Positions 2,683-37,468 of a stretch of 64,000 nucleotides of DNA are shown here, piece by piece. Position 1 is the stretch's first letter. Each line of letters begins with the position of its first letter. The stretch lies in contig JACKGE010000002.1 of assembly GCA_020632155.1 (NCBI GenBank), positions 91,685-155,684 on the forward strand, read 5' to 3'. The DNA is from Candidatus Nomurabacteria bacterium. Its GTDB lineage: Bacteria > Patescibacteriota > Minisyncoccia > Phycocordibacterales > UBA918. The notes beneath the pieces were generated by a model. It saw only the letters and a program-made list of their open reading frames with translations, did not search any database and had not been told where the DNA came from. The position numbers and the translations under genes were made by a program.

Positions 2683-3066
2683 CTATTTAGTAATATTTCG
2701 ATACAGCTTCACTAAAGCTGAACGGTAGGTTGTATCAAGACGACGGTGAGCGCTTTCGACGAGAAGACCGCCAATGACCGCTTCATCGATAGAAAGCTCG
2801 TACTCAGGCTCAGCTTCAAGTAACGTGAGTGCCTTGGTGATCTCAGCTTTTTGTTTTTTAGCAGCCTCTTCACTAACTACAGTAACGGTAGTTTTAGCGT
2901 GAGACTGTAAACGACTCATTTTACGCTCTACTGAACGCAAAATTGCTGACTTTAATTTGCTATGGCTGTGTGCTGCCAGTGTCTGATCAAGTCCGCGAAA
3001 TACATCAGCTGGTTTTGTTCCAGCTTGCAATAGCTCTACAACAGCTGATGCATAGTGCTCTTTCAT
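2683..3066 (-). CDS. atpH: F1Fo ATP synthase delta (OSCP) subunit, short form (127 aa)
   Basis: The C-terminal delta-like sequence (...IGGLLVESAHRRLDTTYRSALVKL) and position between atpF and atpA identify it. The start overlaps the atpF stop, so no longer N-terminus is possible in this frame. Confidence 0.65.
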   Translation of the reverse strand: MKEHYASAVVELLQAGTKPADVFRGLDQTLAAHSHSKLKSAILRSVERKMSRLQSHAKTTVTVVSEEAAKKQKAEITKALTLLEAEPEYELSIDEAVIGGLLVESAHRRLDTTYRSALVKLYRNITK

Positions 3067-3068
3067 GG

Positions 3069-3515
3069 TTAAGTGCGCTCTCTTAAGACTTGTTCAGCTG
3101 CCAAAACTGCGAGTTTAGCAATTTCCGCCTCACTTTCCTTTTTGGCTTGATTCTTTAGTTCAGTACCGGCTGCCTCGGCTTTTTCTACAATGCCTTCAGC
3201 TTTGTGTTCAGCTTCGTGGATGAGTTCACGGCTTTTTTCTTCAGCAAATACTTTTGCGCGAGCAGCCACATCTTCCGCTTCTTTGTGGGCACCGGTGAGG
3301 ATGTGTTGTTTTTCCTCTTCAGCTGCATCTTTGGCGGCTTTAGCGGCGTCGGCATCAGCCATTCCTTGCTTTATCTTCTCTTCGCGTTCACGCAGCATGT
3401 TTAACACTGGCGTGTACAAAAAGTACGACAAAGCACCCATCAAGACCACGAAGTTTATGATCTGAATAATGATGAGTTTGGCATCTATTCCAAAGGCATG
3501 TATAAGCTGTTCCAT
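3069..3515 (-). CDS. atpF: F1Fo ATP synthase subunit b
   Basis: N-terminal TM helix followed by a long charged A/E/K-rich coiled coil (EREEKIKQGMADADAAKAAKDAAEEEKQ...) is typical of subunit b; operon position agrees. Confidence 0.8.
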   Translation of the reverse strand: MEQLIHAFGIDAKLIIIQIINFVVLMGALSYFLYTPVLNMLREREEKIKQGMADADAAKAAKDAAEEEKQHILTGAHKEAEDVAARAKVFAEEKSRELIHEAEHKAEGIVEKAEAAGTELKNQAKKESEAEIAKLAVLAAEQVLRERT

Positions 3516-3663
3516 GATTTACTTCAGTATGTTTATGAAGGAGTGCACAGGATGCCTCAAATGCAAGGCGTTTGAAAAAAATATTGTGAGGTGAACTTTG
3601 GGCGTTCAGTGAGCAATATTTTTTGAAAAACAACGCAGCAGATGAGGTATATCTGTGTGCTCC

Positions 3664-3996
<333 letters not shown>

Positions 3997-3999
3997 CTA

Positions 4000-4818
4000 C
4001 TAGTGTGGTTCTTCAATCGCTAGCTTGATGAAATATAACGTCAAAATAGCAAAGATAAAGGCCTGAATAAAGCCCACAAAGAGCTCATAGGCAATGAGTG
4101 GCACTGGCAGTACGTACGGTGTAGCCAAGAACATCACCACCAACAGTAGCGTCTTGCCAGCAAAAATATTGCCAAATAGACGAAATGAGAACGAGATCAA
4201 GCGAGCCATTTCACTTAATAGTTCAATGAGTCCAATCACAAAACCCAGAGGGGAGCGGAAGTTAATGAATTTACCAACATACTTAAAGAAACCAAGTACG
4301 GTTACTCCAGCCAGTTCAATAGCTACAAAAGCTACAATTGCAAACGCGATGGTGATGTTAAGGTCAGTCGCAGCAGGATGGAAGAACGGTATAAGCTTCT
4401 GCGCCACTTCCCCATGACTTTCTGCTTCGCCGTAGTAACCTATGGCGTCAATCCCTGGTAACAGCCCGACCCAATTCATGACCAAGATAAATATAAAAAT
4501 GGTCATCACGAGTGGAAAGTAGCGTTTGGCGTAAGCCTGACTTTCAAGTACGTCAGCCATATAGTCGTAGACGCCGCCAAGTAGTAGCTCGAAAAAGTTT
4601 TGTAGCTTGTTTGGAATCAGCGCTATCTTTCCTCTGACACGCCACGCGATCAGTAACAGAATGGCCATAGTGAGCCATACAGTAAGGAGTGTACTGGTGA
4701 TAGCAATTCCACCAATGGTAGTAACTGTTTCTGGGGCAAGGTGTATAGCAATACCCTCACTTTCATGACTTTCGTGAGTCTCTTCGGCTGCTTCAGCAAT
4801 CGTGTATATAGCTAACAT
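4000..4818 (-). CDS. atpB: F1Fo ATP synthase subunit a
   Basis: 272-aa polytopic membrane protein with a conserved C-terminal a-subunit region (...LLLVVMFLATPYVLPVPLIAYELFVGFIQAFIFAILTLYF); first gene of the operon. Confidence 0.85.
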   Translation of the reverse strand: MLAIYTIAEAAEETHESHESEGIAIHLAPETVTTIGGIAITSTLLTVWLTMAILLLIAWRVRGKIALIPNKLQNFFELLLGGVYDYMADVLESQAYAKRYFPLVMTIFIFILVMNWVGLLPGIDAIGYYGEAESHGEVAQKLIPFFHPAATDLNITIAFAIVAFVAIELAGVTVLGFFKYVGKFINFRSPLGFVIGLIELLSEMARLISFSFRLFGNIFAGKTLLLVVMFLATPYVLPVPLIAYELFVGFIQAFIFAILTLYFIKLAIEEPH

Positions 4819-5832: not shown

Positions 5833-5860
5833 GGCCCACTCAACAAATTTCGTTTCAGTG

Positions 5861-5934
5861 TGGACCCGACTGGACTCGAACCAGCGGCCTCCTGAGTGCA
5901 AAACAGGTGCTCTAGCCATCTGAGCTACGGGCCC
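5861..5934 (-). tRNA. tRNA-Ala (anticodon UGC)
   Basis: Reverse complement GGGCCCGTAGCTCAGATGGCTAGAGCACCTGTTTTGCACTCAGGAGGCCGCTGGTTCGAGTCCAGTCGGGTCCA folds as a cloverleaf. It has the G3:U70 Ala identity pair, anticodon loop TTTGCAC, T-loop TTCGAGT, and CCA not encoded. Confidence 0.85.
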
Positions 5935-6039: not shown

Positions 6040-6110
6040 TGGGCTCATAGTATAACGGTAACACGCATCCATGGCATGGATGAGTTCGGGGTTCGATTCC
6101 CCGTGAGTCC
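6040..6110 (+). tRNA. tRNA-Ala (anticodon GGC)
   Basis: GGGCTCATAGTATAACGGTAACACGCATCCATGGCATGGATGAGTTCGGGGTTCGATTCCCCGTGAGTCCA has acceptor GGGCTCA/TGAGTCC with G3:U70, anticodon stem CATCC/GGATG with loop ATGGCAT, T-loop TTCGATT, and CCA not encoded. Confidence 0.8.
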
Positions 6111-6215
6111 ACAGCATATACGCACAAAGACACCTTTGGTGCCTTTGATGCGTATAGCTGTGGACTCAAGCAGGCAACCTGTGTTGCCTGCGGCGGGGAA
6201 TCGAAGCGGCGCAAG
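6108..6215 (+). other. structured region immediately 3' of tRNA-Ala(GGC): long bulged stem-loop, second hairpin, T-run
   Basis: The imperfect ~20-bp stem CCACAGCATATACGCACAAAG...CTTTGATGCGTATAGCTGTGG begins inside the tRNA 3' end at 6108-6165 and has an inner CACC-ttt-GGTG hairpin. A second hairpin, GCAGGCAAC-ctgtg-GTTGCCTGC, sits at 6170-6192. Then comes a T-arm-like fragment GGGGAATCGAA and TTTTTT. The ORF-track ORFs 6001-6279(+) and 6026-6214(-) here are judged spurious. Confidence 0.45.
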
Positions 6216-8219: not shown

Positions 8220-9470
8220 TTATCCTAGGCGTGATGTAGGCAAAAAAGTTTGGCTGCGTTTTTTTGTGTGGTACCCAATAGCAAAACGATGGGCCTCGGC
8301 ATTGGCAAGTAAGATCTCGTTTTGAAACTGCTTTACAAGCCTTGAAGAGCCCTTTATGGCTTTTGGTTTGTGGTGTTCATCCTTAGTAACCGCAACCACA
8401 GGGATGAGCATATGATGTGCTTTTAATACCTTCTCGGCTACGTTTTTTTGTGCGGTGCTACCATCAACTACCATAAGTTGTGGCAGGGGCCACTCAGGGT
8501 GACCTAAGCGCCGCTCTAACACCTCACGAAGTGCTGCAGTGTCATTGGAAGCGGTGACGGTTTGTATTTTAAATTTACGGTAGTCACTTTTTATTACTTC
8601 CCCGCCTTCAAGCACCGTCATAACACCAACCATGTCTGCTCCTGCCATATGCGCTATGTCATACGCTTCGATGCGTGCGCGCTTTTCGTCTCGGTACAGT
8701 TTTAACTCATTTTTTATAAGCGCAATATCTTGTATATGTTCTAATGCAAAAATGCGTCGTTTACAAACCTCAGCATCTTCAAATCGTTCATGCTTCGCAT
8801 GAGTAAGCATTTCTTTCTCAAGCTCTTTGATGACCGTCGCTTTTTTCCCTTCAAAAAATAGCCTAATGTGTCTAATGGTTGTGGCGTACTTTTGTTTACT
8901 TGCTTCGTCTGGGTACAGACCTATCTGGCGATTGAAATCAATCGTGCCGCGCGAGAGTTTGCTCTTTTGGCTGCCAACAGGATCTTTGGTGTCATAAAAT
9001 TTAAACAAACGACGTACAATTTTTAGGGCCTCACGAAACAACGTACCGGATGTAAACGGACCAAAGTGGTATTTGATGTCTCGCTCGTTGTATTGCTCCG
9101 TTAGGTCTTTGCCGCGAACCACGAGCACTCGTGGCCACTCCTCATTGGTGATGATGAGGTGATTGTAGCTTTTATCGTCTTTGGAGATGGTGTTATAGCG
9201 GGGTTTGTGTGTACGTATTAAGTTTGTCTCCAAAATAAGCGCCTCAAGCACCGAATCAGTGACGGTCCAGTCAATACTCTTAGCCTCCGCTACCATCTTT
9301 TCGATGAGTTCAGAGCGCTTCTCAGCCACATCGGTTGCAAAATAGCTGCGCACTCGGTTCTTAAGCGACGTGGCTTTACCGATATACAAAATCTCTTTGC
9401 GAGCACCGAGAAAAAAATACACCCCAGAGGCGTCGGGTAATTTTTTCTTTGCTAGGGCTTCTTTGGTCAC
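8220..9470 (-). CDS. uvrC: excinuclease ABC subunit C, short form lacking C-terminal (HhH)2
   Basis: The N-terminus carries a GIY-YIG motif (GVYFFLG...ILYIGKATSLKNRVRSYF). A UVR-like segment follows (EKEMLTHAKHERFEDAEVCKRRIFALE). The RNaseH-like endonuclease block is RIEAYDIAHMAGADMVGVMTV...KSDYRKFKI. The protein ends at 416 aa with no HhH domain. Confidence 0.75.
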   Translation of the reverse strand: MTKEALAKKKLPDASGVYFFLGARKEILYIGKATSLKNRVRSYFATDVAEKRSELIEKMVAEAKSIDWTVTDSVLEALILETNLIRTHKPRYNTISKDDKSYNHLIITNEEWPRVLVVRGKDLTEQYNERDIKYHFGPFTSGTLFREALKIVRRLFKFYDTKDPVGSQKSKLSRGTIDFNRQIGLYPDEASKQKYATTIRHIRLFFEGKKATVIKELEKEMLTHAKHERFEDAEVCKRRIFALEHIQDIALIKNELKLYRDEKRARIEAYDIAHMAGADMVGVMTVLEGGEVIKSDYRKFKIQTVTASNDTAALREVLERRLGHPEWPLPQLMVVDGSTAQKNVAEKVLKAHHMLIPVVAVTKDEHHKPKAIKGSSRLVKQFQNEILLANAEAHRFAIGYHTKKRSQTFLPTSRLG

Positions 9471-9527
9471 AGTACTAGTGTATGAAAAACAACCGAGCGG
9501 CGCAAATCAATGCGCCGCTGTAACCGA

Positions 9528-9746
9528 TTAGGCTGAGATGGGGTTCGCGTTTGAGAGCAGCTTTATGTAACGCTTAACATATCGTTTGAATGGTCTTCGC
9601 GGCATGTTGAGACGTCGAGCTGTGGCAGAAATCGTCCTAATAAGCTGCTGCGGCGAATGCTTTTCGGAAACATGTTCATGATGTACTACCTCGTTTGCAC
9701 ATTCATAAACAGCAATCCAAAACCAGCTGGGCAAGGATGTCTTCAT
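9528..9746 (-). CDS. small hypothetical protein (72 aa)
   Basis: ORF in the 355-bp uvrC-uvrA spacer with a basic C-terminus and no recognisable motif; it may be non-coding. Confidence 0.3.
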   Translation of the reverse strand: MKTSLPSWFWIAVYECANEVVHHEHVSEKHSPQQLIRTISATARRLNMPRRPFKRYVKRYIKLLSNANPISA

Positions 9747-9825
9747 TTTTCCCCCTATCTGGGTTAAATGTTACGTTGAGTAGAACCTTCTGAACCCTTA
9801 GTATAGGGCAAAGCCCAAAATGACG

Positions 9826-12435
9826 CTACTTTCTTTTCAACATCTTTTTAAGATACTGGCCGGTAAATGACTTCTTATTTTCAGCCACATCTTCTGGAGT
9901 ACCCTTGGCAATTAGCTGACCGCCACCTTCCCCACCTTCGGGGCCGATATCCAATATATAATCAGCACACTTAATGAGGTCGAGGTTATGCTCAATGACC
10001 ATAACGGTGTTTCCACGATTAACAAGCTCCTGCAGTATTTCAATCAGTTTTTTAACATCTTCGTAATGAAGACCTATAGTAGGCTCATCAAGCAAGTAGA
10101 TGGTCTTCTGTGTATGTGGACGGTACAGCTCTGAAGCTATCTTAACCCGCTGCGCTTCACCGCCAGAGAGTGTGGTGGCGCTTTGTCCGAGCTCAAGGTA
10201 GCCAAGACCAACGTCCAGCAGTGTTTTGAGGCGTTCATAAATGGCAGGCACGTCGATAAAGAAATCCGCTGCTTCCTCAATGGTCATATGTAAGACCTCG
10301 TGAATATTCTTTTTTTGTAGGTTACCTCAAGTGTTTCTTTGGTAAAGCGTTTGCCATCACACATCACACGTAACATACACCGTGGGCAAAAAGTGCATCT
10401 CAACCGCAATGACACCGTTACCCTGACAGGCTTCGCAGCGACCTCCTTTGACATTGAAGCTAAACCTACCCGGTTTCCAACCGCGCGCTCTCGCCTCACT
10501 CGTGGCTGCAAACATATCGCGTATGTGCGTAAAGGCGCCAGTGTACGTGGCCGGATTACTACGCGGTGTACGACCAATCGGTGACTGGTCGATAAGCACC
10601 GTACGCCCTAAGTACTCACTGCCGGAGAAACTACTGCAGTTATAGGTGTGGGGCGTGCGATGCTTTTTCTCAAGGCGTGAACGTAGGTTTTTATGTAGTA
10701 TCTCGTACATAAAAGACGATTTGCCAGAGCCAGAGACACCGGTTACGCAGATCAAACGTCCAAGCGGCACATCGACGTTAAGATTTTTAATGTTAAAAGC
10801 CTTGCCGCCTTTTATCTTTATTGAGCCTTTTTCACTGCTACGGCGCTCCGGAATTTCTATACGTTTATCACCACGAAGATAATCTAGCGTTACTGATTTT
10901 GATGGGTTAGTTTTGGCAGAAAGAAGTGGTTCGAGGTCATCTGCTACCACCACTTCGCCGCCATGGACACCAGCGCCCGGGCCTATGTCAACGATATAAT
11001 CAGCAGCAAAAATAGTATCTTCATCATGCTCTACCACCAAAATAGTGTTTCCAAGATCACGTAAGTCGGTTAATGTTTTGATAAGTCGGTCGTTGTCGCG
11101 TTGATGGAGACCAATGGTAGGCTCATCAAGGACATACAGGGCACCCACTAGGCCGGAACCGAGTTGGCTAGCAAGCCTAATACGTTGCGCTTCGCCGCCG
11201 GAGAGCGTGTTGGCACGGCGGTCCAGTGTCAGGTATTCAATACCGACGTTATTCATAAATTCAAGTCGTTCAATGATCTCACGTAGCGCTGGCCATGCAA
11301 TATCCTGCTGTTTTTTACTCAGTTTTAGACTGCTGATAAAGTTTGCTGCTTCTTTGACTGTCATGGACGTAAAAGCAACAATATTTTTACCAAGGTCTTT
11401 TTTCCCGTCACCGCCGAGGTACACGCGCAAGGCCTCGGGGCGCAAACGCGCTCCCTTACAGACCGGACACTCGTCGCTTTGAAATATACCCACTACACCA
11501 AGACCGTTACATTCAGGGCAGGCACCATATGGTGAGTTAAACGAGAACAGACGCGGCTCCACTTCTGGAAATGAAGAACCGTCAACTGGACAAATAAACT
11601 TGGCTGAAAGTGTACGCTCACTGCCGTCCGGACTCTCCACTTTTACCAACCCATTAGATTCACGAAGTGCTAACTCTACCGCTTCTGAAAGGCGCTCACG
11701 TGAACCTTTTGGGTCGCTACTGAATTCACTGACGTATATTTCGTCTACAAGCACATCAATATCGTGTCGTTTTGTCTTGGTGAGAACGATCTTTTCACGC
11801 AGCTGTTTGATATTTCCATCTATTTTTACCGTTTCGTAACCTTTGTTTAGGAGGTCATACAACATCTGGTAGTACTCGCCCTTTCGCCCGACGACAAGCG
11901 GCGCAAAAATGGCTACCCGCCCTTTACTGACCTCAATACCCATGATCTGTTCTTTTTTGGCACTTTTGACCTCTTTGTTTTCTATTGACGTAAGTACAAT
12001 ACCAAGTATCTCGTCTTGTGATAGCTTTTGAATCGGTGTATCAACCTCTAAACAGTATGGTTGACCGACGCGAGCATAGAGAATACGCAGGTAGTCGTAG
12101 ATTTCTGTAATGGTGGCGACTGTTGAACGTGGGTTTCGGCTGGCAGATTTTTGGTCAATGGAGATGGCCGGAGACAGTCCACTTATCTCGTCAACATCAG
12201 GTTTTTGCATTTTATTGAGAAACTGACGTGCATACGCAGACAAAGATTCAACGTACCGACGCTGCCCTTCAGCAAAAATTGTATCGAATGCCAGCGATGA
12301 TTTACCTGAGCCAGACGGACCGGTAACAGCAATCATTTTGCCGCGCGGCATTGAAACATCAATGTTTTTGAGATTGTGCGTCCTGGCACCACGCACAATG
12401 ATTTGTTCTTCTTTTTTATCGTTATTCTTAGCCAT
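9826..12435 (-). pseudogene. uvrA: excinuclease ABC subunit A interrupted by two frameshifts
   Basis: The 692-aa N-terminal ORF (12435-10357) has the UvrA Walker A motif [14 protein letters not shown] and zinc fingers. Reading continues in a second frame as ...[17 protein letters not shown], then in a third frame (10287-9826) as [10 protein letters not shown]...[15 protein letters not shown]...DEPTIGLH (the second ABC signature). Restoring the frames requires adding 2 nt in tgtgatgtgtgatgg near 10356-10362 and one A in the A7 run at 10297-10303. Confidence 0.8.
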
Positions 12436-12505
12436 AGTATGATAAGCGCCTGCAGATGGTGCTGCAGGTAAGGCACTGCCAGTATACCAAAGAATGTCTT
12501 AACTG

Positions 12506-13858
12506 CTAGGCAGCCTCTTTTGGTAATGAGACCACCACGTGAGTGCCAACCCCTTTGATGGATTCAACTGCCAAACTTCCTCCCATTAGTTCAATGAGTT
12601 GTTTGGTGATCCACATACCAAGACCGGTGCCAGTAATTTCGTTCACACTGTCATTTTCCACTCGAAAGAACGGAGCAAAAAGCTTTTTCTGATCTTCGGC
12701 TGCAATACCCATACCGGTGTCTTTAATACGTAGTTCTACCACTTGTTGTTTTTCTTCGAGTGAAATGGTAATGCTACCCTCTTTTGTATATTTTATTGCA
12801 TTACTGATTAGGTTAGTGAGGGCTTGATGTAGTCGTTTGGCATCAACGTGCGCTGCTGGTTGTATACTTTCGTCAACATCGAGAATAACTTCAATTCCTT
12901 TCTCTGCTGCTGATGACAAAAGTTCGTCCCGAACTGCATTTAAAACGGGTGCAATATTCGTTGAAGCATTTTTTACTTTGAGCTTACCGGATTGAATACG
13001 AGCGACATCAAGCAAGTCGTTTACAATGGTGAGCAATCGTTCTGCAGAAGTGCGGATGCGTGAATTGTACTCTTTGTTTTGGCCATGCACTTGACCAGAC
13101 TCTTCTACCATACTGGCATACCCTTTGATGGCGGTAAGTGGCGCCCGCAGTTCGTGTGCAATCATGTTTGTAAAGAGGTCCTTCATCTCGTTAGCTTTTT
13201 TCGTCTCTGCGTACAGATACCGGTAATCGGTTGAACGGATCTGCCAGTACGCAATAAGGAGCATGAGTAGGTACACAAACGCCAATGAGTAATACGCATT
13301 TTGTTTTCTAGCTTTGATAACGGCGTCTAAGTTGGTCAGATCGTGTTCACTGTATATGAAATATCGTACCTGATCACTATTTGTGATCAGTTTGACTGCC
13401 AGCCAAACACGGCCACCGGAGTACTCATGTGGGTAAATGAGCGTGTTGTCCTGCACGGCGGCAAACTCTAGCATGGGGGTTATTTGTTCAATTTTTTCTG
13501 GAGTGGTTGTGCTAGAGCCAGCGATCACGATAAAGTCGCTGTCATTTGTTTGCTTTAGTATGAGGACACCGGTTAGATCGTTATTAGTTTCTACTAGTTT
13601 TTTCAGCTCAGGCTCAAGAACAGCCACATTTAGCTGGTCCGTTTGTAGCAGTAGAAGCTCTAGTGTGTCATGCAAAAACCCAACCTGTGTTCGATACAGA
13701 GTGTCTTGGTTACTTTCAGCCGCTCGCAAAAATTGTTGACCGGAATACAAAAAAACCAGTGGCACACCGACTAACAACATTAAAGCTAGTAAGATATGCG
13801 GATGAGCAGTGACATAGCGGAACCCTCGTTCTATAGCATACAGAACACTTGAGATCAT
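12506..13858 (-). CDS. sensor histidine kinase (two TM helices, HisKA + HATPase_c)
   Basis: H-box HELRAPLTAIKGYASMVEE; N, G1 and G2 boxes (NLISNAIKYT, IKDTGMGI, GTGLGM); two TM segments flank a periplasmic domain. No response regulator gene lies in the window. Confidence 0.85.
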   Translation of the reverse strand: MISSVLYAIERGFRYVTAHPHILLALMLLVGVPLVFLYSGQQFLRAAESNQDTLYRTQVGFLHDTLELLLLQTDQLNVAVLEPELKKLVETNNDLTGVLILKQTNDSDFIVIAGSSTTTPEKIEQITPMLEFAAVQDNTLIYPHEYSGGRVWLAVKLITNSDQVRYFIYSEHDLTNLDAVIKARKQNAYYSLAFVYLLMLLIAYWQIRSTDYRYLYAETKKANEMKDLFTNMIAHELRAPLTAIKGYASMVEESGQVHGQNKEYNSRIRTSAERLLTIVNDLLDVARIQSGKLKVKNASTNIAPVLNAVRDELLSSAAEKGIEVILDVDESIQPAAHVDAKRLHQALTNLISNAIKYTKEGSITISLEEKQQVVELRIKDTGMGIAAEDQKKLFAPFFRVENDSVNEITGTGLGMWITKQLIELMGGSLAVESIKGVGTHVVVSLPKEAA

Positions 13859-13863
13859 GATAC

Positions 13864-16464
13864 TTACATGGAAACGTAGCCTTCAGCTACTAAATGTTCT
13901 TGTGGGCGTTCGGTGCGCAGATGCATACCTAGAAGCAACAAAATAAGTCCGATAATGACAACAGAAAGTGAGAGTACGAACATCAAGATGCGTTCACTGA
14001 GGAGATCGTTTTCAGTCTGCTCAGTTGAGGCTGCCACAGTAGCGGCTTCAGTCACTGTACTGAAGGCCTCAGCAGTTTTAACGAATCGTAACACTTCACT
14101 CTTAGCTACTATTTTACCGGTATTATCCGTCATACCAACATAGAGTTCGTGTTCGCCATCTTCCAGTTCTTTATCAAACTGATAATTCCAAACACCATTC
14201 TCGTCGGTTCGTACCGTTACAATGACTGGTGTACTAAAAATATACAAAGTGACAAAACTGTTTGGCAATGCCGAGCCTTCCACATATAATTGCGGTTCAG
14301 TAAACGCTGGTGCAATTGTCTCTTGCTCAGCTGTATCTTCTAGACTCTCACTACGCACGGTTTCAATAGTATGTATGTGTAGTATGTCACTGCGAACCAA
14401 TCCTTTTTCCTTTGGTGATTCATACACGAGAACTGCTTCAGCGGAGCTATTTGTCGGATCATATCCAGAAACGATCTCAATACCATCAAGAACACCGTCA
14501 CTGTCCGTATCAGGTTCTAACGGGTTGGTATGATAAATAAACTGCTCATCGTAGTCGGACACTCCATCTTTGTCTGTGTCCTTCGTAACCTTATCTCCCA
14601 CTCGTTCACGTACAATGGATTCAGTACGAGCTACACGATCTTCCATATCAGCTAACTCTTCTTGCAGTTGTTCATCCAAGCCCGCTACAAAATCATCTGT
14701 ACCTGAAGTAATAATGCCAGTCAACATTCTTTGTTTTAGTTCTTGCACATTATCTTGCGCTTGCTTGATAGCTGATGGGTCACCACTGCGATACGCGACA
14801 GCCAGGCGTTCTGCGGCCTCACTTAAGTCTTGCTGGTGCTCACCTAAGATCGTCTTTGCTTGCTGAGTCAGTGCTCGCTTACCAGCCTCATTTTCACGAC
14901 TAGCAACCTCTTCTTTAATAACGCGCAGTTGTGTGGCCGTCTCGACATCTTCAATGACCTGTGCGTCGTGCTCATCCTGTATTTTAGTAGTTGGGTTTGC
15001 CACCTTTAGCTTAATGCTATTGCTAGTCACTTTATTTGAACCATATGCTGCTACTGCATATAGCTCATAGTCTCCGTTTGGCGTGTTAGTTGTATTCCAT
15101 TCGATGTGCCAATGGTCAGATGCTTCAACTGATGCTCTTCCGATAAATATCGCTCGAGTGGCGTTTTTAGGAGCAACGTAAAACTCAACTCTCTGAGGAG
15201 TATTCGACGTTTCTGCCGAAATTTGCACGGCTCCAACGACTTGTTCATTTTGAGGTTTTAAAACAACAATACTGTCTTTACTCACTGCTTCAAGTGCATC
15301 AGATTCAATATCTGTAGCTGAGGACTCTGTTGTACTGACATCATCTAAGGTGACGGTCATGTGTTCGCTTTCACGCTGTCCGTCGACCGTTTCTGCCTCA
15401 ACAAACAGTACGTACGTTCCTCGATTATTGTCTTTGTTATTCCATCGAAATGTCCAGCGTTCGTCTGAATCCTGTTTTGCTAAACCAAGACGATACAATT
15501 TTCCAGTAGCTGATTCTACGGCCTTAACCTCAACAGCAGTGGTACTTGGATCAGTAGTAATTGAAAGTGATATTCGATCATTACTATTTTGTTGAATAGT
15601 AAAGACAGGTGCTGTTGATCCTGAAGAAGTATGTGATGTGCTTGCGTGTGCAGCAGTCGGGTCACCAAAGTTTATTATTTGCTCGACATCTTCTGACTCT
15701 ACCTGTAACTCAGCATCCTCAGAGGTGTCAATAACTGAATAGACTCGTCCACTTGGATCTTGTTGCCACTCGTCGTCAAGTAACAACTTGAGGCGATATG
15801 AAGCAGGATTAGTATTGTCTGTGTGCCATATTCCGTGCCACAACGAAATACCGTTAGTATTTTTAGTTACAAAAGTTAACTCTTCATCAAGGACCACTCG
15901 ATTGCCGTTAATAGTATTAACTCCATATATACCAACTGAGTCATAGTTCCCGTTAGTTCTAAACTCAAACTCCCGGTCTCCATTATCAGTTTCGTGTTTG
16001 ACTGTGATCTCATACATTTGAACCAGGCTGTCGACGAGCCTAGTAGTATACGTAGAAGCGAGCTGACTTACTTCCGTTGGTCTGGCAACTAGGTTCACCA
16101 GATCATTTGAAACCGGCTGAACCGTAAGATACGAAAAAAAAGCGCCTATGATAACAAACGCGAGGCCAGCAACACGGGCAGTTTGAATGGCCACTTTATC
16201 GACATCAAGCGGAAACCGAAATGGTGATAAACTGATCAAGCTCAAGCGGTCCCGCAGCTTAATGGAAGTCGGAAACTTAGGTAATAGCTTACTATTATGG
16301 GTTTCAGTTGGTGCTTTTTTTCGACCTCCTGTTTTAGAGCCTTTGGAAGCAGATTTCTTGACCGGCTTTTTTTTGACTGTTTTTTTGGGTGCCTTTTTTG
16401 CTGCAACTTTTTTTGTTGCTTTTTTAGCAGCCACCTTTTTGACAGGCTTTTTGAGTGTTGGCAT
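13864..16464 (-). CDS. large bitopic membrane protein with a lysine-rich histone-H1-like N-terminal tail and thrombospondin-type-3-like Ca-binding repeats
   Basis: The N-terminus is MPTLKKPVKKVAAKKATKKVAAKKAPKKTVKKKPVKKSASK... and a TM helix follows at about residue 100. A roughly 700-aa extracytoplasmic region carries DTDKDGVSDYDE / DTDSDGVLDG motifs, with a second C-terminal TM. Its stop is 5 nt from the histidine kinase start, so the two are translationally coupled. Confidence 0.7.
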   Translation of the reverse strand: MPTLKKPVKKVAAKKATKKVAAKKAPKKTVKKKPVKKSASKGSKTGGRKKAPTETHNSKLLPKFPTSIKLRDRLSLISLSPFRFPLDVDKVAIQTARVAGLAFVIIGAFFSYLTVQPVSNDLVNLVARPTEVSQLASTYTTRLVDSLVQMYEITVKHETDNGDREFEFRTNGNYDSVGIYGVNTINGNRVVLDEELTFVTKNTNGISLWHGIWHTDNTNPASYRLKLLLDDEWQQDPSGRVYSVIDTSEDAELQVESEDVEQIINFGDPTAAHASTSHTSSGSTAPVFTIQQNSNDRISLSITTDPSTTAVEVKAVESATGKLYRLGLAKQDSDERWTFRWNNKDNNRGTYVLFVEAETVDGQRESEHMTVTLDDVSTTESSATDIESDALEAVSKDSIVVLKPQNEQVVGAVQISAETSNTPQRVEFYVAPKNATRAIFIGRASVEASDHWHIEWNTTNTPNGDYELYAVAAYGSNKVTSNSIKLKVANPTTKIQDEHDAQVIEDVETATQLRVIKEEVASRENEAGKRALTQQAKTILGEHQQDLSEAAERLAVAYRSGDPSAIKQAQDNVQELKQRMLTGIITSGTDDFVAGLDEQLQEELADMEDRVARTESIVRERVGDKVTKDTDKDGVSDYDEQFIYHTNPLEPDTDSDGVLDGIEIVSGYDPTNSSAEAVLVYESPKEKGLVRSDILHIHTIETVRSESLEDTAEQETIAPAFTEPQLYVEGSALPNSFVTLYIFSTPVIVTVRTDENGVWNYQFDKELEDGEHELYVGMTDNTGKIVAKSEVLRFVKTAEAFSTVTEAATVAASTEQTENDLLSERILMFVLSLSVVIIGLILLLLGMHLRTERPQEHLVAEGYVSM

Positions 16465-16501: not shown

Positions 16502-18541
16502 TTACTTCTGTGGATTCTTTTTCTGTAGCGACTCTTCAAGGTACCGAATTTCATCACGAATGATGGCGGCAGTTTCAAAATCAAGCCGCGCAACCGCTTC
16601 ACCCATTTGCGCCCGCTTTTCACGCAGGGTAGCTTTGGGGCGTTTTTTAAAGAGTTCCATGTCGACCTTAAGAAGTGAGTCAACAGTCTCGTCGTGTTCG
16701 CTGCGAAGTTGGTCGGCAATGGAACGGATCTCCTTCTTAATGGTTTGCGGGGTGATGTTGTGTTCTTCGTTATAGGCAAGCTGCAAGGCGCGGCGGCGTT
16801 CTGTTTCTTCTGTGGCGGCTTTGAGTGCCTTAGTAACTTCGTCGGCATATAAGACCACGCGACCATTGACATTGCGAGCTGCCCGTCCGATAGTCTGGAT
16901 AAGCGCCGTCTCACTGCGCAGAAAACCTTCTTTGTCGGCGTCGAGAATAGCCACCAGCTCTACTTCCGGTAAGTCAAGGCCTTCACGTAGTAGGTTGACA
17001 CCCACCAAACAATCAAAGTCTCCTTTGCGAAACTCAGTTAAGGTCTCAATCCGTTCAATGGTGTCTACGTCGCTGTGAATATATTTGGTTTTAATTCCCT
17101 TTTCAGTCAAAAAATCGGTTAGGTCTTCGGCCATTTTTTTGGTAAGCGTAGTCGTAAGGACGCGGGCGCCGCGCTCGATAGTTGCTACAGCGTCTGCAAT
17201 AAAGTCTTTGACCTGCCCTTCATAGGAGCCTTTCTGGGTAACGGGGCGTAGTTCTATCTGCGGATCAACCAATCCCGTTGGGCGAATGATCTGCTCGGCC
17301 ACACGGCCGTTTGGTGCTACCGACTGTTCAAACTCATACTTACCGGGGGTAGCTGACGTGTAAATACACTGTCCGACTCGCTCTGTAAACTCAGTAAATT
17401 GTAACGGCCGGTTATCGACCGCGCTTGGCAAACGAAAACCAAACTCCACCAGAGTATTTTTGCGTGAGCGATCGCCAGCATACATGGCGTTAAGCTGGGG
17501 GATGGTCACGTGTGATTCATCAATAACAGTGAGAAAGTCTGGCCGACCATCTTTAGTGTGCGGAAAGTACGACAACAGCGTATACGGCGCTTCACCCGGT
17601 TTTCGCCGGTCAAAATGACGGGAGTAATTTTCGATACCGTTACAGTAGCCAACTTCACGAATCAGCGCGAGGTCATGTTCGGTACGCCGTTTAAGTCGCT
17701 CTGCTTCAAGTAACTTCCCTTCTTTTTTAAACTGTTTTAACTGTGTTTCCAGTTCTTGTTTTATATCTTCAATAGCAACTTTTCGCTCTTCGTCCGGAGT
17801 CACAAAGTGTTTGGCGGGAAAAAGATAAAATACGTCGGGCTCAGCAATTATTTCGCGAGTGACTGCGTCTATTTTGGTGATAGCACTAACTGAATCACCC
17901 GCAAACTGCAATCGGTAGATAACGCGTTCGTTAGTGGGCATTATTTCTATCGTATTGCCAATGGCTCTGAAATGTCCTGGGGTAAGATCAGCATTGGTAC
18001 GCTCAAAATAGAGACCAACTAGGTCGCGAATAAAGCCTGCTCTGGTAGCTGTGTAGCCCTGTTCGATTTTTTTGTGTACGCGCTCGTACTCAGCCGGTGA
18101 ACCAAGGCCATAGATACATGAGACCGACGCCACAATAATAACGTCTTGTCTTGTTAAGAGTGCTTGTGTTGAAGCATGGCGCAAACGGTCGATCTCAGCG
18201 TTAATCTGCGCCTCTTTCTCTATATAGGTGTCACTGGTTGGCATGTACGCCTCCGGCTGATAGTAGTCATAGTAGGAGACAAAGTAATGGACGGCGTTAT
18301 TAGGGAAAAAGTCGCGGTACTCCTGCGCTAACTGCGCCGCTAACGTTTTGTTGTGAGCAATAACGAGGGTTGGCTTTTGTACTTCAGCTATCACATTGGC
18401 GGCCGTAAAGGTCTTTCCCGAGCCAGTCACACCCAAGAGTGTTTGGTGCTTTTCACCACCCCTAAAGCCCCCAACCAATGAAGTAATGGCTTTAGGTTGG
18501 TCACCAGCTGGTTGTTTGTCTGTAGCTAACTCAAATTTCAC
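16502..18541 (-). CDS. uvrB: excinuclease ABC subunit B
   Basis: 679 aa with GVTGSGKTFTAANVIAEVQKPTLVIAHNKTLAAQL, YFVSYYDYYQPEAY, helicase motifs, and a C-terminal UVR domain. Confidence 0.95.
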   Translation of the reverse strand: MKFELATDKQPAGDQPKAITSLVGGFRGGEKHQTLLGVTGSGKTFTAANVIAEVQKPTLVIAHNKTLAAQLAQEYRDFFPNNAVHYFVSYYDYYQPEAYMPTSDTYIEKEAQINAEIDRLRHASTQALLTRQDVIIVASVSCIYGLGSPAEYERVHKKIEQGYTATRAGFIRDLVGLYFERTNADLTPGHFRAIGNTIEIMPTNERVIYRLQFAGDSVSAITKIDAVTREIIAEPDVFYLFPAKHFVTPDEERKVAIEDIKQELETQLKQFKKEGKLLEAERLKRRTEHDLALIREVGYCNGIENYSRHFDRRKPGEAPYTLLSYFPHTKDGRPDFLTVIDESHVTIPQLNAMYAGDRSRKNTLVEFGFRLPSAVDNRPLQFTEFTERVGQCIYTSATPGKYEFEQSVAPNGRVAEQIIRPTGLVDPQIELRPVTQKGSYEGQVKDFIADAVATIERGARVLTTTLTKKMAEDLTDFLTEKGIKTKYIHSDVDTIERIETLTEFRKGDFDCLVGVNLLREGLDLPEVELVAILDADKEGFLRSETALIQTIGRAARNVNGRVVLYADEVTKALKAATEETERRRALQLAYNEEHNITPQTIKKEIRSIADQLRSEHDETVDSLLKVDMELFKKRPKATLREKRAQMGEAVARLDFETAAIIRDEIRYLEESLQKKNPQK

Positions 18542-28579: not shown

Positions 28580-31500
28580 TTAGAATACCGGTATAGCTAA
28601 GTATACAACGTCAGTACTATAGAGACCGGCCGGCTGTTCGTCAGTGATCTCCACCTTATAAATGATATTCGAACTGTCACTAGCTGGGAGTGAGCTATAC
28701 ATGACTTCGCGCGGCGTTGGTTCAAATGCGGCATAGCTGTCGGTAGGTGAAAACCGCGTGCTGGTGCCACTTAACGTGTCATCACCCGCGTGGTAACCAA
28801 AGCACCCGGTGGTTGAAGCGAGACAACCACTATTCCAACCAAGTGGCGCGTAGTTGGTTCCAAGAATAGCCGGAATAGTGCCACCATGACTACTCACGAG
28901 ATCACTGCGGGCATACATGAGTACTTGGTATCCTTCAGTGGCGTTGGTGGTAACACCAAGGGTATGGGCCGCTGTGACTTCTGTATCAAGTGGTAGTGAA
29001 CCAAAATTGACCATGGACGGTGTTGTGGTTGCGTCTGTGGTGACTCCTTCGGTGTTTGTTCCGGACGGTAGACCACTAACAGAAAACGAGAGGCTTGGTC
29101 CTTCAATCTGTAGACTCGGATAGCTGGAGCTAGCAACAAGTGGATCGTCGGTGGTAGCATCGACTAACCTGAAGTAATAGACCGCGCTGGCTCGCGCTGC
29201 CGCTTGTGCTAATGTAAATTCCATTTCGACACTGGTATTTGCGTCGTGGGTAAAGGTACTACTGGTAGTGGCCGCTTCGTTGTGTGTACCACAACCGGTT
29301 CCGCTACCGCCACTACAGCTTTCACTATCTGAAAGGACGTTAGCATCAATAAGTGCGTTATCAACGCCGGCGCCATCTGCATAACACCAGGTGGAAGTCG
29401 CGGTGCATGACGAGGTAGCTACCAAGGTTGTGCCTCCATCACTAAAATTAGCGTACTCAGAATACTGCAAGGCAAACTTGATATTACTACCGGCAGCTCC
29501 TTCTACCTCAGATGCAGTCACGCGCAGCTTGAGGATATCACCATCCGCTATTCCTGTCGGCGCAATATTTTCTCCGGCCAGTGAATTACTTGGTGTAAGA
29601 CTGGTCTCATCATCAAACCACTGCCAGTTACCTGAGACGGGTGTGTAGCCGGTGGTACGGAGTGTTGGGTAATACAAGTATTCGGACAACAAAGTTCCAT
29701 CGCTTTCAACCATTCGGAAACAATAGTCTGAGCGTTGGAGGGCGCCGTTGTGTTCCACTACCCAATCGTATTCAACGTCATCACCAAGAGTAGCGGCATT
29801 TGGGTTTACCAGTGAATTATTTTCCTCTTCATAGGTAGCTGCCACATCAGACACCGACAGCACTGTTGACGGGAGGGTTGTACCATCACTTGGAGTAGCG
29901 TTATAACCGCGCCAGATAGCACCACTACCGGCTGCGCCCACATCTGTCCACGACACAATAGCGCCGCACGACGCACCACTACGAAGTCCGTACTGTAATT
30001 TAAAGGCTTTGCTAGTCTCTGGAAATGCTGCATTCTTTACATTAAGTGACATGCGTAGCCGTACTCGCTCCCCCTCAGCGAGCGGATCATCGGTACCGGT
30101 AAGCTCCGCGTTTTCACCTAAGTCAGTTGCCCCGACCGGCCACGGGTCAGTTGGCGTCAAGGTGTCATTGTCGGCATAGATACGGAAATAATTTTGCGTG
30201 AACGCAAGTTGTGCTACCGGCCACTCGACGACAGAAACCTTGAAGTTTTGTGTTTGTCCCGCATCACTTTCATACAGTTCATACTCAGTGGTACTGGTAA
30301 CGGTAGTACCGAGCATCGCTCTTGGAAACGCCGTACCACTACCCGTACTGTCGTTAGTTATAAAAATAGAGGCATTACTGACACTACCGAGGGTACCGCC
30401 AAACGTAAACAGCGTCGTGCGCGGCTCAATAGCCTCGTTCCCATCAAGGCTCTCGTTGTTGTCATGGTATACCGTCATGGCGCCGGTGTTAAGTTGGGTA
30501 TTCTCAACAAGCCACGCCACTGAGACCTGTTCTGTGGGTTGGTTGGTACCACTGTTGAGTTGGAACGAGATGTTGCCTAAACTACTGAGCCACACTTGAT
30601 GACCATAATCGTCAAGACCGATATAATCGCCACCAATACGCTTTTGGGCATGGATAAACGCCTTATCAAGACCACCGACAGCAGTTATTGGTTCGGTCTC
30701 GGTCACACCAGCAGCACTATAGGTATGTTCGATGCGCTGCACTTTCCAATTGACGCCAGTAAACTCTACGACCGCGTAGCTGACATCAGTGATAGAGCTT
30801 TCACTGGTGGTTGCCCGAGTAAAGACCGGGACGTTTGACGTTGTGTCCCAAGCGGCGGTGTTTTGGTTGGCGGGAAATTCGTTTTGGTTACCATCAGAGC
30901 GCTGGCCAGTAATAAAGACCACGACATCAGCGTCGTCAGCTACTGTACTGACTGCAGTGCCGGTAGCAACAAGTCCGGTGGTGCCGTGACTGACTGTGCC
31001 GGTATCACGCACTACCATTTCATTATCAGAACCGGATAATCCGATGTACTCGACCAGCTCCCAGCTTACTCTGGTGTCGTTGGCTGCTCCGGAAGGACGC
31101 GCAACGGTAAAACTAGAGGTCAGATCGCTTTGATCCGATATGTACGCAGTTACGTTAACCGCTGTTTGTGTACCTTGCGAAGACGCACCGGCACCAGTCA
31201 GCTGGGAGTCAGTGATGCGCACAAATGCTGTTGAGGTACTGGCAGGCGGCGTGTAATCTACTCCGGCTACAAACGTGCGACTGGTTCCCGATATGAATTC
31301 GGTCTTACGCTGCACAAAGAAATCTTGTCGCTCGCGTGTAGTGAGTTCGCCATACTCTGTGTAGGCAGTGAGCGCACTGCCGCTGTCGGTAAGTCTAAAA
31401 CAGTAATCAGTACCGTAGGCCGATTGATCGGTTGCCATAATGGCAAATTCAAGTTCAGTGTACTGCGATGCTGAAAGAGTAAGCGAGCCGGTCTCATCAC

Positions 31501-34500
31501 TTACCTCTCGCTGTCCACCATTAGTGCCGAGAAACGTGCCCCCACCGTCAGTGACCCCACCATTTCCAGGACTGATATCAGTGGTGTCATTACCCTCCGT
31601 AAGCTGTGAGGTGGTGGCCATCGTGAACGCGGTACCACTGGCGATCCGCTGCCAGACCCCCACGGTGCTGCAGGTACCGACTTTGGTACCGTACTCTAGT
31701 CGATATGTGGTCCCGGCACTACTTACGCTGCCGGTATTCTCAACCCGAAATCGAAGACGATAGGGCGCATAGCGCGCCACATTAGGAAGTGGCGTGTTTT
31801 CTGTGCCGCCCGTTGCGGACGTGGCTCCTGTTTCGTCACCATTGTCGTTGCGCCAATGATAGCCCGTCTGAGTTAACACCGCTGCGTTTATTGTTGTACT
31901 ACCAGTTGGATCGACCGCACTACTAGGGCCTACAGAAGATGAGGTGACCACGACATCATTTGACGGGTCAGCAATAGTGACATTGACCGTGTTGCCATTG
32001 GCAGCAGCTGTATCTACATCTGCAACTACGTAGCCACAGAGTGTGTTAGTGCTATTTATGGTTACACTATCAGAAAAAGTGGACGTGCCGTTAGCACTAC
32101 CAAAACTCGACGCCGACCCGAACAGCGACTCAGTACCTGCGTATGATTCACTAGCGCAATCATACGGTGCGGAAGTATCAAGCTCATAATACAGACGGAT
32201 ATTTGACAGTTCGGTACTGGCGTCTGCAGTACCGTCTTCACTGATGGTGATGTCGGTCACGGTGCGATCACTGCCGGCACGAGTCACCACAAAAGTGCCG
32301 CCAAGATACTGGTTGCTGGTCCCGGCATTTATGCTGGCAGTAGCAGTGCCACTAGCAGTGACTGTGATATCAGCAGAAATGGTGCCCTCTGGGTACACTG
32401 AATAGTTACGTAGTGGCGTCCCTGCATCAGTCATCCGAAAACAGTAGGTTGTCCCTTGCGGCGAGCTGGCAGTCGGTTCGATCGCAAATTCGAGTTCCAA
32501 AAAGTTACTAGTACTGAACGTAAGCGCTCCGGCCTGTGAACTCGTATCTAACAGAGCGCCGTTTGGAGTCAAATGTGTACTGTTTTCGTTTGTGGTACCA
32601 CCACTTGCAGGCGCAAGATCACTACTGTCAGTGCTGTCTATCAAGAACAATGAATCTGACATGTCCCAGTCACCGCCGCCAGCACCAACATCCGTCCAGC
32701 CGGTGGCGGCGTCACAAGTAGAAGATTTAGCGGCGTACTCAAGTCGCAGGCTTACTGGCGCTGATGACGTAGAACCTTCTGCGGATATTTGGGTGCGGAG
32801 GCGACGAATGGTGCCGTTGGCAAAGCCGAGAGCTGGTGTATCTTCCGCCCCTTCAACTGATGTGGCGCTACCTTCAAGGCCATCATCATTAAGCCACTGG
32901 TAATGTACTTGGGTTAGCTCGGCATTTTGCAGCGTGACGCTCCCGGTTGGCGCAATACTAACAGCTGGCCCAATACTGCCACCACCGGTATAGGTTATAT
33001 CTGTGGTGGGGTCATCAATTGACACTTGTACGGTTTGTCCGTCACTAGCGCTACTGGTCACGTCATACACCACGTACGCACAAAGTGTTTGGGTGGTTGA
33101 AATGCCTACTGCTTCGGAAAAACTAGAAATACCATCAGCTCCAGAGAAACCGTTCGTGTCGGTGCTACCATACTGGCTTTCTGTAGAGGTACCAGAAAAC
33201 GATTCACTAGCGCAGTCATACGGAAATGAGGTATCAAGATCATAATAGACCGCAATATTGTTTACGCCGGTAGTACCATCCACTGTACCGGATTCGGTAA
33301 AGGTCAAACTAGTGATGTTACGTGCCGTTGAATTGGTTTTAATGGCAAATGAGCCACCAAGTTCATGGCTCGTCTGTGGTATATCAACCGTTGCTGTCTG
33401 TGTACCAGTGGCACTTACTTCCACATCATCAAGAAACAGTTTTGAGAGCTCAATACCTTGCAGTGCAATATTACCAGCCTCAAGCTCTGCATCAGCAGCA
33501 TCCTCTTCATCAAACATCGTTATTTCCAGATACTGGCTACTCGTGAGGCCCGGCAAAATAAGCCCTCCTGCTGAACCAGCGGCAAATGAGTCTTGACTAC
33601 CTTGGTTACCACGCAAGAAGCTACCGTGTCCACCGTATGGAACGGTAGTAGCGCCATCAAGTCGCCACTCAATACGATACGGGTCGCGGTCGCCAGAGGC
33701 AACATTTGATCGAGTAGCGTAGATGTTTGAAAAGAACAGGTAATCTCCATCAAGATCAATCTGCACTTGTGATGGGTTAGTACCGTTGGAGTGAGAAAAC
33801 GCAGCACCATCAACTTCAATTTCGCTATCAAAATCAAGCGGTGCCGCCGTACTCGGTACTGACTGTGAACTCGCTGAGGAAAGTGAAATATAATTGGCAG
33901 TATCAGGTAGGGCAACAATGGACACAGCCGTCTCCCCGCCAAAAATAACTGTGGTTGGCGGCGTACCGTCATCAGTGTTCTCTTGGCGGACTTCAACATT
34001 GAGGATCTCGTTGGTTGAGGTAGCCTTTTGAATGATGCCGGCGTACGCAAGTGTGCCGTAGTAGGTACCGCCACCACCACGGACATATGTAGTTACACGC
34101 GTGCCGGGGATCGCAACCCCGCCCAACGTAAGGACTGACTCGTAATTTTGTCGCTCCCCCGAGTTAGCGGTTTGGTGAATGCGGATGTTATATGTAACCA
34201 GAAAATGGTCTCCGGTATTTCCCTTAAGAGTCATATCGGCCCCCGAAGAATACCCGAACGTGTCAGTGTCCACTTCATCAATAGTATCCCACGTCACATC
34301 GGTAAACGAAGTGGTACCGGCAATATCACTGCTATCCGTGCCTTTACGAAGACGTAGATAATCGAGGTCATCTTTAAGTTTAAGGATTGAGACGCCGTTC
34401 ACACCGGCGCGTAACTGCGTCTGATTATCTGAACTGGTGTCGTCACGAGCGACATGAACGGTAAGTGTGTCATCAGCAGTAGCATCAATAATGGCGGTGC

Positions 34501-36724: not shown

Positions 36725-37468
36725 TTATCGTCGCCACGAGTCAGCTAATATTATAGAAAAGTCAGTAAAGTTCATGCGTTTGTCCTCATTAAAATCGTAA
36801 ATGATCTTTTTGTCGGTCCAAGCAGCCATAAACTGTAAAATGTCTGTCAACGTGACCTTCCCATCGCCATTGATGTCGGTATACACGCGTATTTCCGCCG
36901 TGGCAGTAAGGACTCCGTCTTCACCTTGAGCAACGATAACAACGCTTTTCTCCCCTACTTTAGTAGCAGCGACTTCAGTCCCTGAGCCATCTCCCGCCAA
37001 AAAAGCCACGTCACTGGCGGCAAACTGCGCAATACCGGTGGCCTTGGCCACAGCATTTATGGTGACGATCCTGTGTTCTCCCAAAAAACCGCGTCGGAAC
37101 GTGCCTCCGCTTAGATGGACGACGCCATTCTCAGCGTATGGTTCAGTGGTCCAAATAGTGATGACTGATTCTCCGGTATCAATACCGGTAATGGCCACTT
37201 TGTCTTCTGGGTACTCGAGGTCGATATTAATTGCATTGACCGGAACATGTGCACCAACAAATACATCTACACTAAATGGTTTACCGGCCTCAATAGTGGC
37301 ACTTGAAAACTCCAGGCGCATGTAAGACGCGTCACTCGGCAAAATAACTGCTGCTCCTATGAGCGAGAAAGCGGTGACAATAAGCGGAAACGCGTACCGC
37401 ACCGTTCGACTACGGTTAGTGCGGCAGGAAAAGCAAAATCGATAAATGATCCGTTGGAGCCATTTCAT
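36725..37468 (-). CDS. membrane-anchored protein with cohesin-like domain and C-terminal type-I dockerin
   Basis: The dockerin duplicated Ca-binding segments are YTDINGDGKVTLTDILQFMAAW and DFNEDKRMNFTDFSIILADSW. The upstream beta-sandwich region has a cohesin-like pattern (SVDVFVGAHVPVNAINIDLEYPEDKVAITGIDTGESVITIW). Confidence 0.65.
   Translation of the reverse strand: MKWLQRIIYRFCFSCRTNRSRTVRYAFPLIVTAFSLIGAAVILPSDASYMRLEFSSATIEAGKPFSVDVFVGAHVPVNAINIDLEYPEDKVAITGIDTGESVITIWTTEPYAENGVVHLSGGTFRRGFLGEHRIVTINAVAKATGIAQFAASDVAFLAGDGSGTEVAATKVGEKSVVIVAQGEDGVLTATAEIRVYTDINGDGKVTLTDILQFMAAWTDKKIIYDFNEDKRMNFTDFSIILADSWRR

Follow-up and report, generated by a model that had tools for sequence, protein, structure and literature searches.

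Reading frames that break at short repeats are known from several systems. At the contingency loci of Neisseria, Haemophilus and Campylobacter, the length of a repeat in the coding region sets the on/off state, and the known contingency repeats are far longer than (TG)3-4. The dnaX-type -1 frameshift takes place on an A-rich slippery run ending in G (A AAA AAG), with a Shine-Dalgarno-like element upstream and a stimulatory structure downstream. In young slipped-strand pseudogenes, a conserved gene is interrupted within an A-run or a dinucleotide repeat and the partners of its pathway are intact. In yeast, the synthesis that accompanies gene conversion raises frameshifts in short runs. Among sequencing artefacts, Nanopore data also contract dinucleotide repeats. 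Homopolymer indels that cause frameshifts are a documented systematic error of Nanopore sequencing (PMC9262707; PMC8011154).

We compared these systems with the uvrA gene of an organism of the Paceibacteria (Patescibacteria, candidate phyla radiation), which is interrupted twice in the deposited sequence. The window, which is the whole stretch of DNA that was analysed, comprises 64,000 nucleotides. The UvrA encoded there is normal in every tested respect save continuity. Its disruption fits the class of false frameshifts known from long-read or hybrid metagenome-assembled genomes (MAGs), with a strain seam as the extra detail, and it is not novel biology. We judge it likely that both deletions are errors of the deposited assembly and do not belong to the DNA of the organism.

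The uvrA reading frame and its two deficits

The uvrA gene lies on the minus strand (12435→9826), and its 2610 nt are divisible by 3, as seen from the ORF listing and the translations. Three segments, all on the minus strand, were distinguished. The 5' segment (10357..12435) is read in frame A, covers residues 1-692 and ends in VYVTCDV, followed in the ORF list by a TGA at 10359-10357. The middle segment (10311..10361) consists of 17 codons that are readable only in frame B (+1). The 3' segment (9826..10311) is again in frame A and runs from KNIHEVLH through MTIEE to the stop, its first ATG being at 10287 (ORF 9826..10287). Because the 2610-nt span is divisible by 3, the N- and C-terminal parts share one frame.

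The frame changes at two simple-sequence tracts of the minus strand. Site 1 (10354..10368) reads tgtgatgtgtgatgg and holds (TG)3 at 10358-10363, where (TG)4 is needed for V-C-D-G, which leaves a deficit of 2 nt. Site 2 (10310..10316) is an A7 run where A8 (AAA AAA AAG) is needed, a deficit of 1 nt. These are the sole (TG) run of at least three units and the sole homopolymer of at least 7 nt in uvrA.

Both pieces of the protein were recognised by the NCBIfam profile TIGR00630, the N piece with 884 bits (cut-off of 729.8) over profile positions 1-766 and the C piece with 229 bits over positions given as 792-942 and as 790-924. The middle segment makes up the latter half of the C-terminal zinc module and aligns to residues ~786-802 of the Geobacillus UvrA structure 2R6F, and the 3' segment carries three motifs of the second ABC module, namely the signature, the Walker B and the H-loop. 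Both of the ABC ATPase modules that stand in tandem in a UvrA are present, as judged from TIGR00630 and from the repaired C-terminal third against 2R6F. In the deposited sequence, the second CxxC is divided between the frames, and the continuous frame with a CxxC...CxxC zinc module appears only after a TG and an A are added. After repair of the gene, in which site 1 was lengthened by a TG (tgtgatgtg^tgatgg) and the A7 run by one A, it encoded a protein of 870 aa. The C-terminal third of this protein aligns to 2R6F (residues 631-958) without a gap, and the protein aligns gap-free to all relatives too.

Two other accounts of the frame were tried and rejected. A genetic code with TGA as a sense codon was discarded since the wrong-frame stretch also contains a TAA. 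A compensated frameshift, with uvrA read in a single frame throughout, was discarded since that frame contains two stops.

Outside uvrA, the window is clean. Besides uvrB and uvrC, ~40 other genes appear intact, and the Pfam and NCBIfam profiles are fully covered in every gene of the window that has a family. When 1,588 ORFs from related loci were compared with the window by tblastn, stops within alignments were found only at ~10330 and ~10360. Additionally, 16 further coding homopolymers with a length of 7 nt or more, including A8, T8 and C7, are in frame, and so is the only other (GT)4.

An earlier, sequence-only reading of this DNA had proposed that uvrA is disrupted by two frameshifts at simple-sequence tracts and that the other genes, uvrB and uvrC included, are intact. 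The ORFs, the translations and the NCBIfam pieces confirm the former, and profile coverage, tblastn and the in-frame homopolymers support the latter as far as it can be tested. The three frames it described for UvrA should be corrected to three segments in two frames.

Relatives, the same-species allele and the haplotype switch

The UvrA of this clade is under strong constraint. Its amino-acid identity to the relatives is 86-93% (70-76% for UvrC), and few protein genes of the window are as conserved as uvrA. For the pairwise dN/dS against the closest other species, the synonymous sites were saturated and only dN was usable. The repaired UvrA shows no change at the 367 columns that are at least 97% conserved in 83 relatives. 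The closest relatives (L001, L002 and L004) share 16 of the 17 residues of the middle segment, and the 3' segment is 94-96% identical to L001 and L002.

At the DNA level, all of the relatives compared (83 of 83) read straight through both sites. The Val-Cys codons at site 1 vary freely among them; nine have GTGTGT, and three of these nine have the full (TG)4 context. The A-run at site 2 has most commonly a length of 5 and is interrupted by AAG in most relatives. An A8 was found in two of 84 loci (L009 and L011), the latter reading TAC AAA AAA AAG AAC. Both intact tract forms assumed in the repair exist in nature.

Several searches returned other species only or had no match. The related-locus scan with the repaired UvrA in genome contigs gave other species at up to 89% identity, and the scan with UvrC in metagenome contigs gave other species at up to 74%. 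A 93-aa protein query spanning the junctions had a best match of 85% and was uninformative on fragments of the same organism. The exact DNA pattern over both sites, with flexible repeat lengths, had no match in genome or metagenome contigs, and neither a uvrA fragment nor the repaired protein was found in the protein collection. Likewise, exact-product look-ups in the contig index had no match for the uvrA fragments, UvrC, the histidine kinase or Ddl.

An independent scaffold of the same species was reached through a cluster mate (at least 90%) of the histidine kinase upstream of uvrA. This scaffold, L166 (ENA ERZ28659597, sample SAMN08389276), has 4,559 bp, and its uvrA ORF is open for 857 codons, up to the scaffold end. 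Against window positions 14423..9868, it is 97.8% identical over 4,559 nt, with 98 mismatches and only two gap openings, which fall exactly at sites 1 and 2. At site 1, L166 has GATGTGTGTGATGGC, that is (TG)4, and at site 2 it has TACAAAAAAAAGAAT, that is A8; all 17 residues of the middle segment match. The 2-nt deficit at the TG tract and the 1-nt deficit in the A-run, were both put forward in the sequence-only reading, and the repair predicted there is exactly what L166 carries. The comparison with the uvrA of related genomes that it suggested gave an intact gene in the 83 relatives and in L166. It had also named A8 and an extra TG as what would make uvrA intact after all. The L166 scaffold comes near to this by carrying both; however, it is another haplotype in the adjacent block and not a set of reads.

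The mismatches to L166 are unevenly spread. From 12750 to 10365 (2.4 kb), the window and L166 do not differ at all, and the TG indel is the first difference. It is followed by SNPs at 10326 and 10320 and then by the A indel. The divergent block (9940..10326, minus strand) differs from L166 by ~13% overall, has both indels at its 5' edge and is flanked by 100% identity; the last 70 nt of the L166 alignment are again identical to the window. The dense part of the block, at 9940-10255, begins ~110 nt past the first indel and contains ~50 differences in 316 nt (~16%). From the 50 uvrA codons that differ between the window and L166, 49 are synonymous and one is non-synonymous, and the first frameshift site lies upstream of all 50.

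Of the two block haplotypes, each has the other as its nearest match, with 86.7% identity; to all other loci, the identity is ~77%. A third haplotype (L167, Logan SRR12358675) alternately matches the window and L166. Given the uneven mismatches and this third haplotype, the population is a mosaic of strains, with the two indels placed on the edge of a haplotype switch. As the boundary zone occupies ~110 of 4,559 nt, a chance coincidence of unrelated indels with the switch has a probability of ~2%.

Provenance of the contig and origin of the two deletions

The protein accessions give an indication of where the contig comes from. In the record, which holds a contig of 194,332 bp and names its proteins 'Candidatus Nomurabacteria bacterium', UvrC is MCB9811875 and the window histidine kinase is MCB9811876, and the neighbours of UvrC are MCB9811873 and MCB9811874, then MCB9811876 and MCB9811878. 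Between UvrC and the histidine kinase, where uvrA sits, the record has no protein accession; therefore, it already handles uvrA as non-coding or as a pseudogene region. The proteins MCB9805934-38 of a relative, JACKFZ01 (isolate HK-STAS-PATE-18), have the same naming style and were assigned ~6,000 accessions earlier. The close accessions and the shared naming style indicate the same submission batch, so the window contig probably belongs to the HK-STAS activated-sludge MAG set.

The HK-STAS MAGs (Liu et al. 2021) were assembled with metaFlye from Nanopore reads of 86.7% accuracy (PMC8518188). Long reads of at least 70% identity and short reads of at least 80% identity were then recruited bin-wise, and a Unicycler hybrid assembly of Nanopore and Illumina reads was performed, with a re-assembly step for bridging gaps (PMC8518188). 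In a mock community benchmark, this workflow left 0.96-1.79 indels per 100 kb (PMC8518188), and therefore ~1 indel is expected in a 64-kb window.

From this provenance, we infer a bridging step through which a hybrid Nanopore and Illumina assembly of a strain-rich activated-sludge population could have produced both deletions. With uvrA so strongly conserved, reads of co-occurring close relatives would be recruited into one bin, the short-read graph would break where the haplotypes diverge, and a join or bridge of error-prone long-read consensus made by Unicycler would span the break. Within a bridged patch of this kind, the longest simple repeats, A8 and (TG)4, may each have been called one unit short. 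In that case, the organism would encode an intact UvrA of 870 aa that acts with the intact UvrB and UvrC. Because the assembly was probably made by long-read bridging, the errors would be local and not evenly spread.

Errors of the assembly are consistent with the residual indel rate, with the otherwise clean window and with a gene free of decay. Relative to L166, the closest relative, the repeats are contracted (A8→A7 and (TG)4→(TG)3), and they lie in a region of strain heterogeneity, at the edge where the identity to L166 falls from 100% to ~84-87%. As in known indel errors of Nanopore or hybrid metagenome assemblies, the deletions sit in the longest simple repeats of a gene whose conservation is otherwise perfect, and each repeat is longer by exactly one unit in a close relative; the same signature is described, for homopolymers, in PMC9262707 and PMC8011154. 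A metaFlye and Unicycler hybrid MAG is the probable source. In contrast to the usual errors of this kind, there are just two in 64 kb, they are ~50 nt apart, and one is in a dinucleotide repeat. The coincidence with a haplotype switch differs from general base-calling error and indicates a join or bridge problem. Some points stand against errors of the assembly. L166 differs in the adjacent block, so it proves the ancestral state and not an error. The remaining window is clean, and two lesions in one gene are also expected from relaxed selection. Moreover, Illumina polishing normally corrects A8 and (TG)4 easily. The sequence-only reading took the good quality elsewhere as an argument against sequencing error, which it listed as one of three alternatives; the window is indeed clean, but the argument loses weight since the indels lie at the edge of the haplotype switch.

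A real and very recent inactivation of uvrA, specific to one strain whose sisters keep nucleotide excision repair, is unlikely in our assessment, and several of the same observations can be read in its favour. Replication slippage, or error-prone synthesis during the recombination that imported the divergent 3' block, would have shortened A8 and (TG)4; the first frameshift would have killed uvrA, and the second would have been neutral. Two lesions in uvrA and none in ~40 other genes are what is expected once selection is lost, both tracts are the most slippage-prone in uvrA, the assembly is accurate elsewhere, and next to the indels lies a block that may represent a true recombination tract. 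The missing uvrA protein accession in the NCBI record shows that the gene was deposited in its disrupted state. The locus is like young slipped-strand pseudogenes in that a conserved uvrA is interrupted in an A-run and in a dinucleotide repeat, with intact pathway partners. However, these pseudogenes differ from it in their decay. The repaired uvrA has no further lesion and no excess of non-synonymous change, with none of the 367 conserved columns changed and 49 synonymous codon differences against one, and the constraint on UvrA in this clade is unusually strong (86-93% identity, with synonymous sites saturated). Intact uvrB and uvrC, the intact allele of the same species and the 83 intact relatives also argue against it, no independent assembly with the disrupted allele was found, and a real null unrelated to recombination would have to accept the ~2% coincidence with the switch edge. 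The genuine pseudogenisation raised in the sequence-only reading is an unlikely alternative, and the repaired gene shows no sign of relaxed selection. The more specific course, in which two slippage events abolished uvrA in one sludge strain while a divergent recombination tract was being imported, and in which the lineage may be without mismatch repair, we hold to be distinctly improbable.

The two deletions could also be functional. Expression could be switched by phase variation in tract length, or the frames could be joined by ribosomal or transcriptional slippage (-2 at GUG UGA and -1 at A AAA AAG). The tract lengths do differ between the window and L166, and repeat length within the coding region would set the on/off state as in the contingency loci. 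Unlike those loci, the uvrA tracts are much shorter, two of them must change together, and they are not maintained in the relatives, where the A-run is mostly broken by AAG and most commonly five long; a housekeeping repair gene is also an atypical target. The slipped-strand phase switch of the sequence-only reading thus finds no support in tracts that are short and not conserved. Similarly, with the G that follows it, the A7 run is like the dnaX-type slippery motif and has a Shine-Dalgarno-like GAGGU 7 nt upstream. However, the 80 nt downstream of the run fold no better than shuffled sequences (z = -0.5), so that a stimulatory structure of the dnaX type is missing, and the site is kept in no relative. 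Before the A-run shift, a separate -2 shift would be required 47 nt upstream. At site 1, this -2 shift has poor re-pairing, and a +1 shift would lose a zinc-binding cysteine. No shift is needed in any of the 83 relatives or in L166, and two independent events would give a negligible yield; a functional switch or recoding is very improbable. It is scarcely credible that a 692-aa N fragment and a 153-aa C fragment, the latter started at the internal ATG at 10287, assemble into a working UvrA without a covalent link. Each fragment has complete motifs, and the ATG has a Shine-Dalgarno-like GAGGT 7 nt upstream. Nevertheless, the GAGGT and the ATG encode a conserved H-E-V-L-H-M and also occur in most relatives with an intact gene, ~25 residues, including two zinc ligands, would be absent, and no relative is divided at the same position.

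Excision repair and the surrounding window

If both deletions are errors of the assembly, as we favour, the locus has a practical side: the label 'pseudogene' in a deposited hybrid MAG can indicate where strain haplotypes have been joined, even if the sequence around it is clean over 60 kb. The conclusion that this organism is without nucleotide excision repair is probably wrong. If the allele were real, a bacterium of the candidate phyla radiation would have lost, at the level of a strain, a repair gene under very strong conservation, which would be of modest interest. A strain devoid of nucleotide excision repair would then live alongside sisters that have it, and the locus would be a natural case of recombination-associated frameshift mutagenesis in an uncultured bacterium of this radiation.

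Both partners of UvrA are encoded on the minus strand of the window. The uvrB gene (16502..18541; protein MCB9811878.1) is intact and matches NCBIfam PRK05298 with 956 bits over profile positions 1-652 of 653. The uvrC gene (8220..9470; protein MCB9811875.1) is intact and encodes a short form of 416 aa, a normal length for the clade, in which the UvrC of relatives has 409-411 aa. The Rfam search of the window gave two tRNAs and nothing else. The window is 94% coding, and all genes but one tRNA are on the minus strand.

UvrA and UvrC proteins of the clade

The repaired UvrA, which is read from window 9826-12435 on the minus strand with the missing TG and A put back, comprises about 870 aa, whereas UvrA of model bacteria has 940-970. 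The Pfam search recovered the UvrB-interaction domain (PF17760) in the repaired protein, and no Pfam match was obtained for the DNA-binding (insertion) domain. In the NCBIfam alignment, about 85 profile positions were skipped ahead of residue 319.

The uvrC gene was located at 8220-9470 in the window and, in loci of the closest relatives from other species, at 8949-10178 (L001) and 9059-10294 (L002). The UvrC proteins of this clade have only 409-416 aa, and the GIY-YIG, UVR, and RNase H-like endonuclease domains were all found in them. The C-terminal helix-hairpin-helix region seems to be missing, as the clade proteins are about 160-200 aa shorter than the UvrC family models (roughly 575-650 residues). 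The short UvrC is a lineage-wide trait and not a truncation peculiar to the window genome. Compared among the same relatives, UvrA is far more conserved (86-93%) than UvrC (70-76%).

Between uvrA and uvrC lies a 72-aa ORF (window 9528-9746) without a family match and without a protein accession in the NCBI record. The relatives harbor an ORF of 58-70 aa in the equivalent position (L001 8723-8899 and L002 8781-8993).

Haplotypes and assemblies around uvrA

Window 9868-14423, the ENA scaffold ERZ28659597 (L166), and the Logan contig SRR12358675 (L167) represent three haplotypes of the same species, each a mosaic of the others. The divergence of individual blocks ranges from 0% to about 13%, and the sharing patterns among the three interleave inside 100 nt. 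This mosaic reflects either frequent recombination in the Paceibacteria population or consensus-chimeric assemblies.

A uvrA gene adjoining uvrC was also observed in a related Patescibacteria contig (L165, ENA ERZ25039521 contig_15386, 3011-4691), broken into fragments none of which exceeds about 160 aa. This contig exemplifies a long-read-style assembly full of frameshifts, whereas the window carries one clean pair of indels.

Other genes of the window

Two giant genes were annotated. The product of the first (28580-34954; 2,124 aa) had no match in Pfam. The second (51227-64000) encodes at least 4,232 aa, with the frame still open where the window ends, and DUF2341 was its sole domain match. 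Of two neighboring genes, the one at 36725-37468 codes for a protein with a dockerin type I domain, and the one at 38138-39895 for a protein with cohesin and bacterial Ig-like (Big_13) domains; in this member of the candidate phyla radiation, the two may constitute a cohesin-dockerin pair.

The gene for the delta (OSCP) subunit of ATP synthase (2683-3066) is located 2 nt downstream of the b subunit gene and encodes only 127 aa, matching only positions 56-171 of the 172-position profile; the short length of this subunit may be natural. Two divergent tRNA-Ala genes, with anticodons TGC (5860-5934, minus strand) and GGC (6041-6112, plus strand), are spaced by 106 nt, and the latter is the sole plus-strand gene within the 64 kb window.
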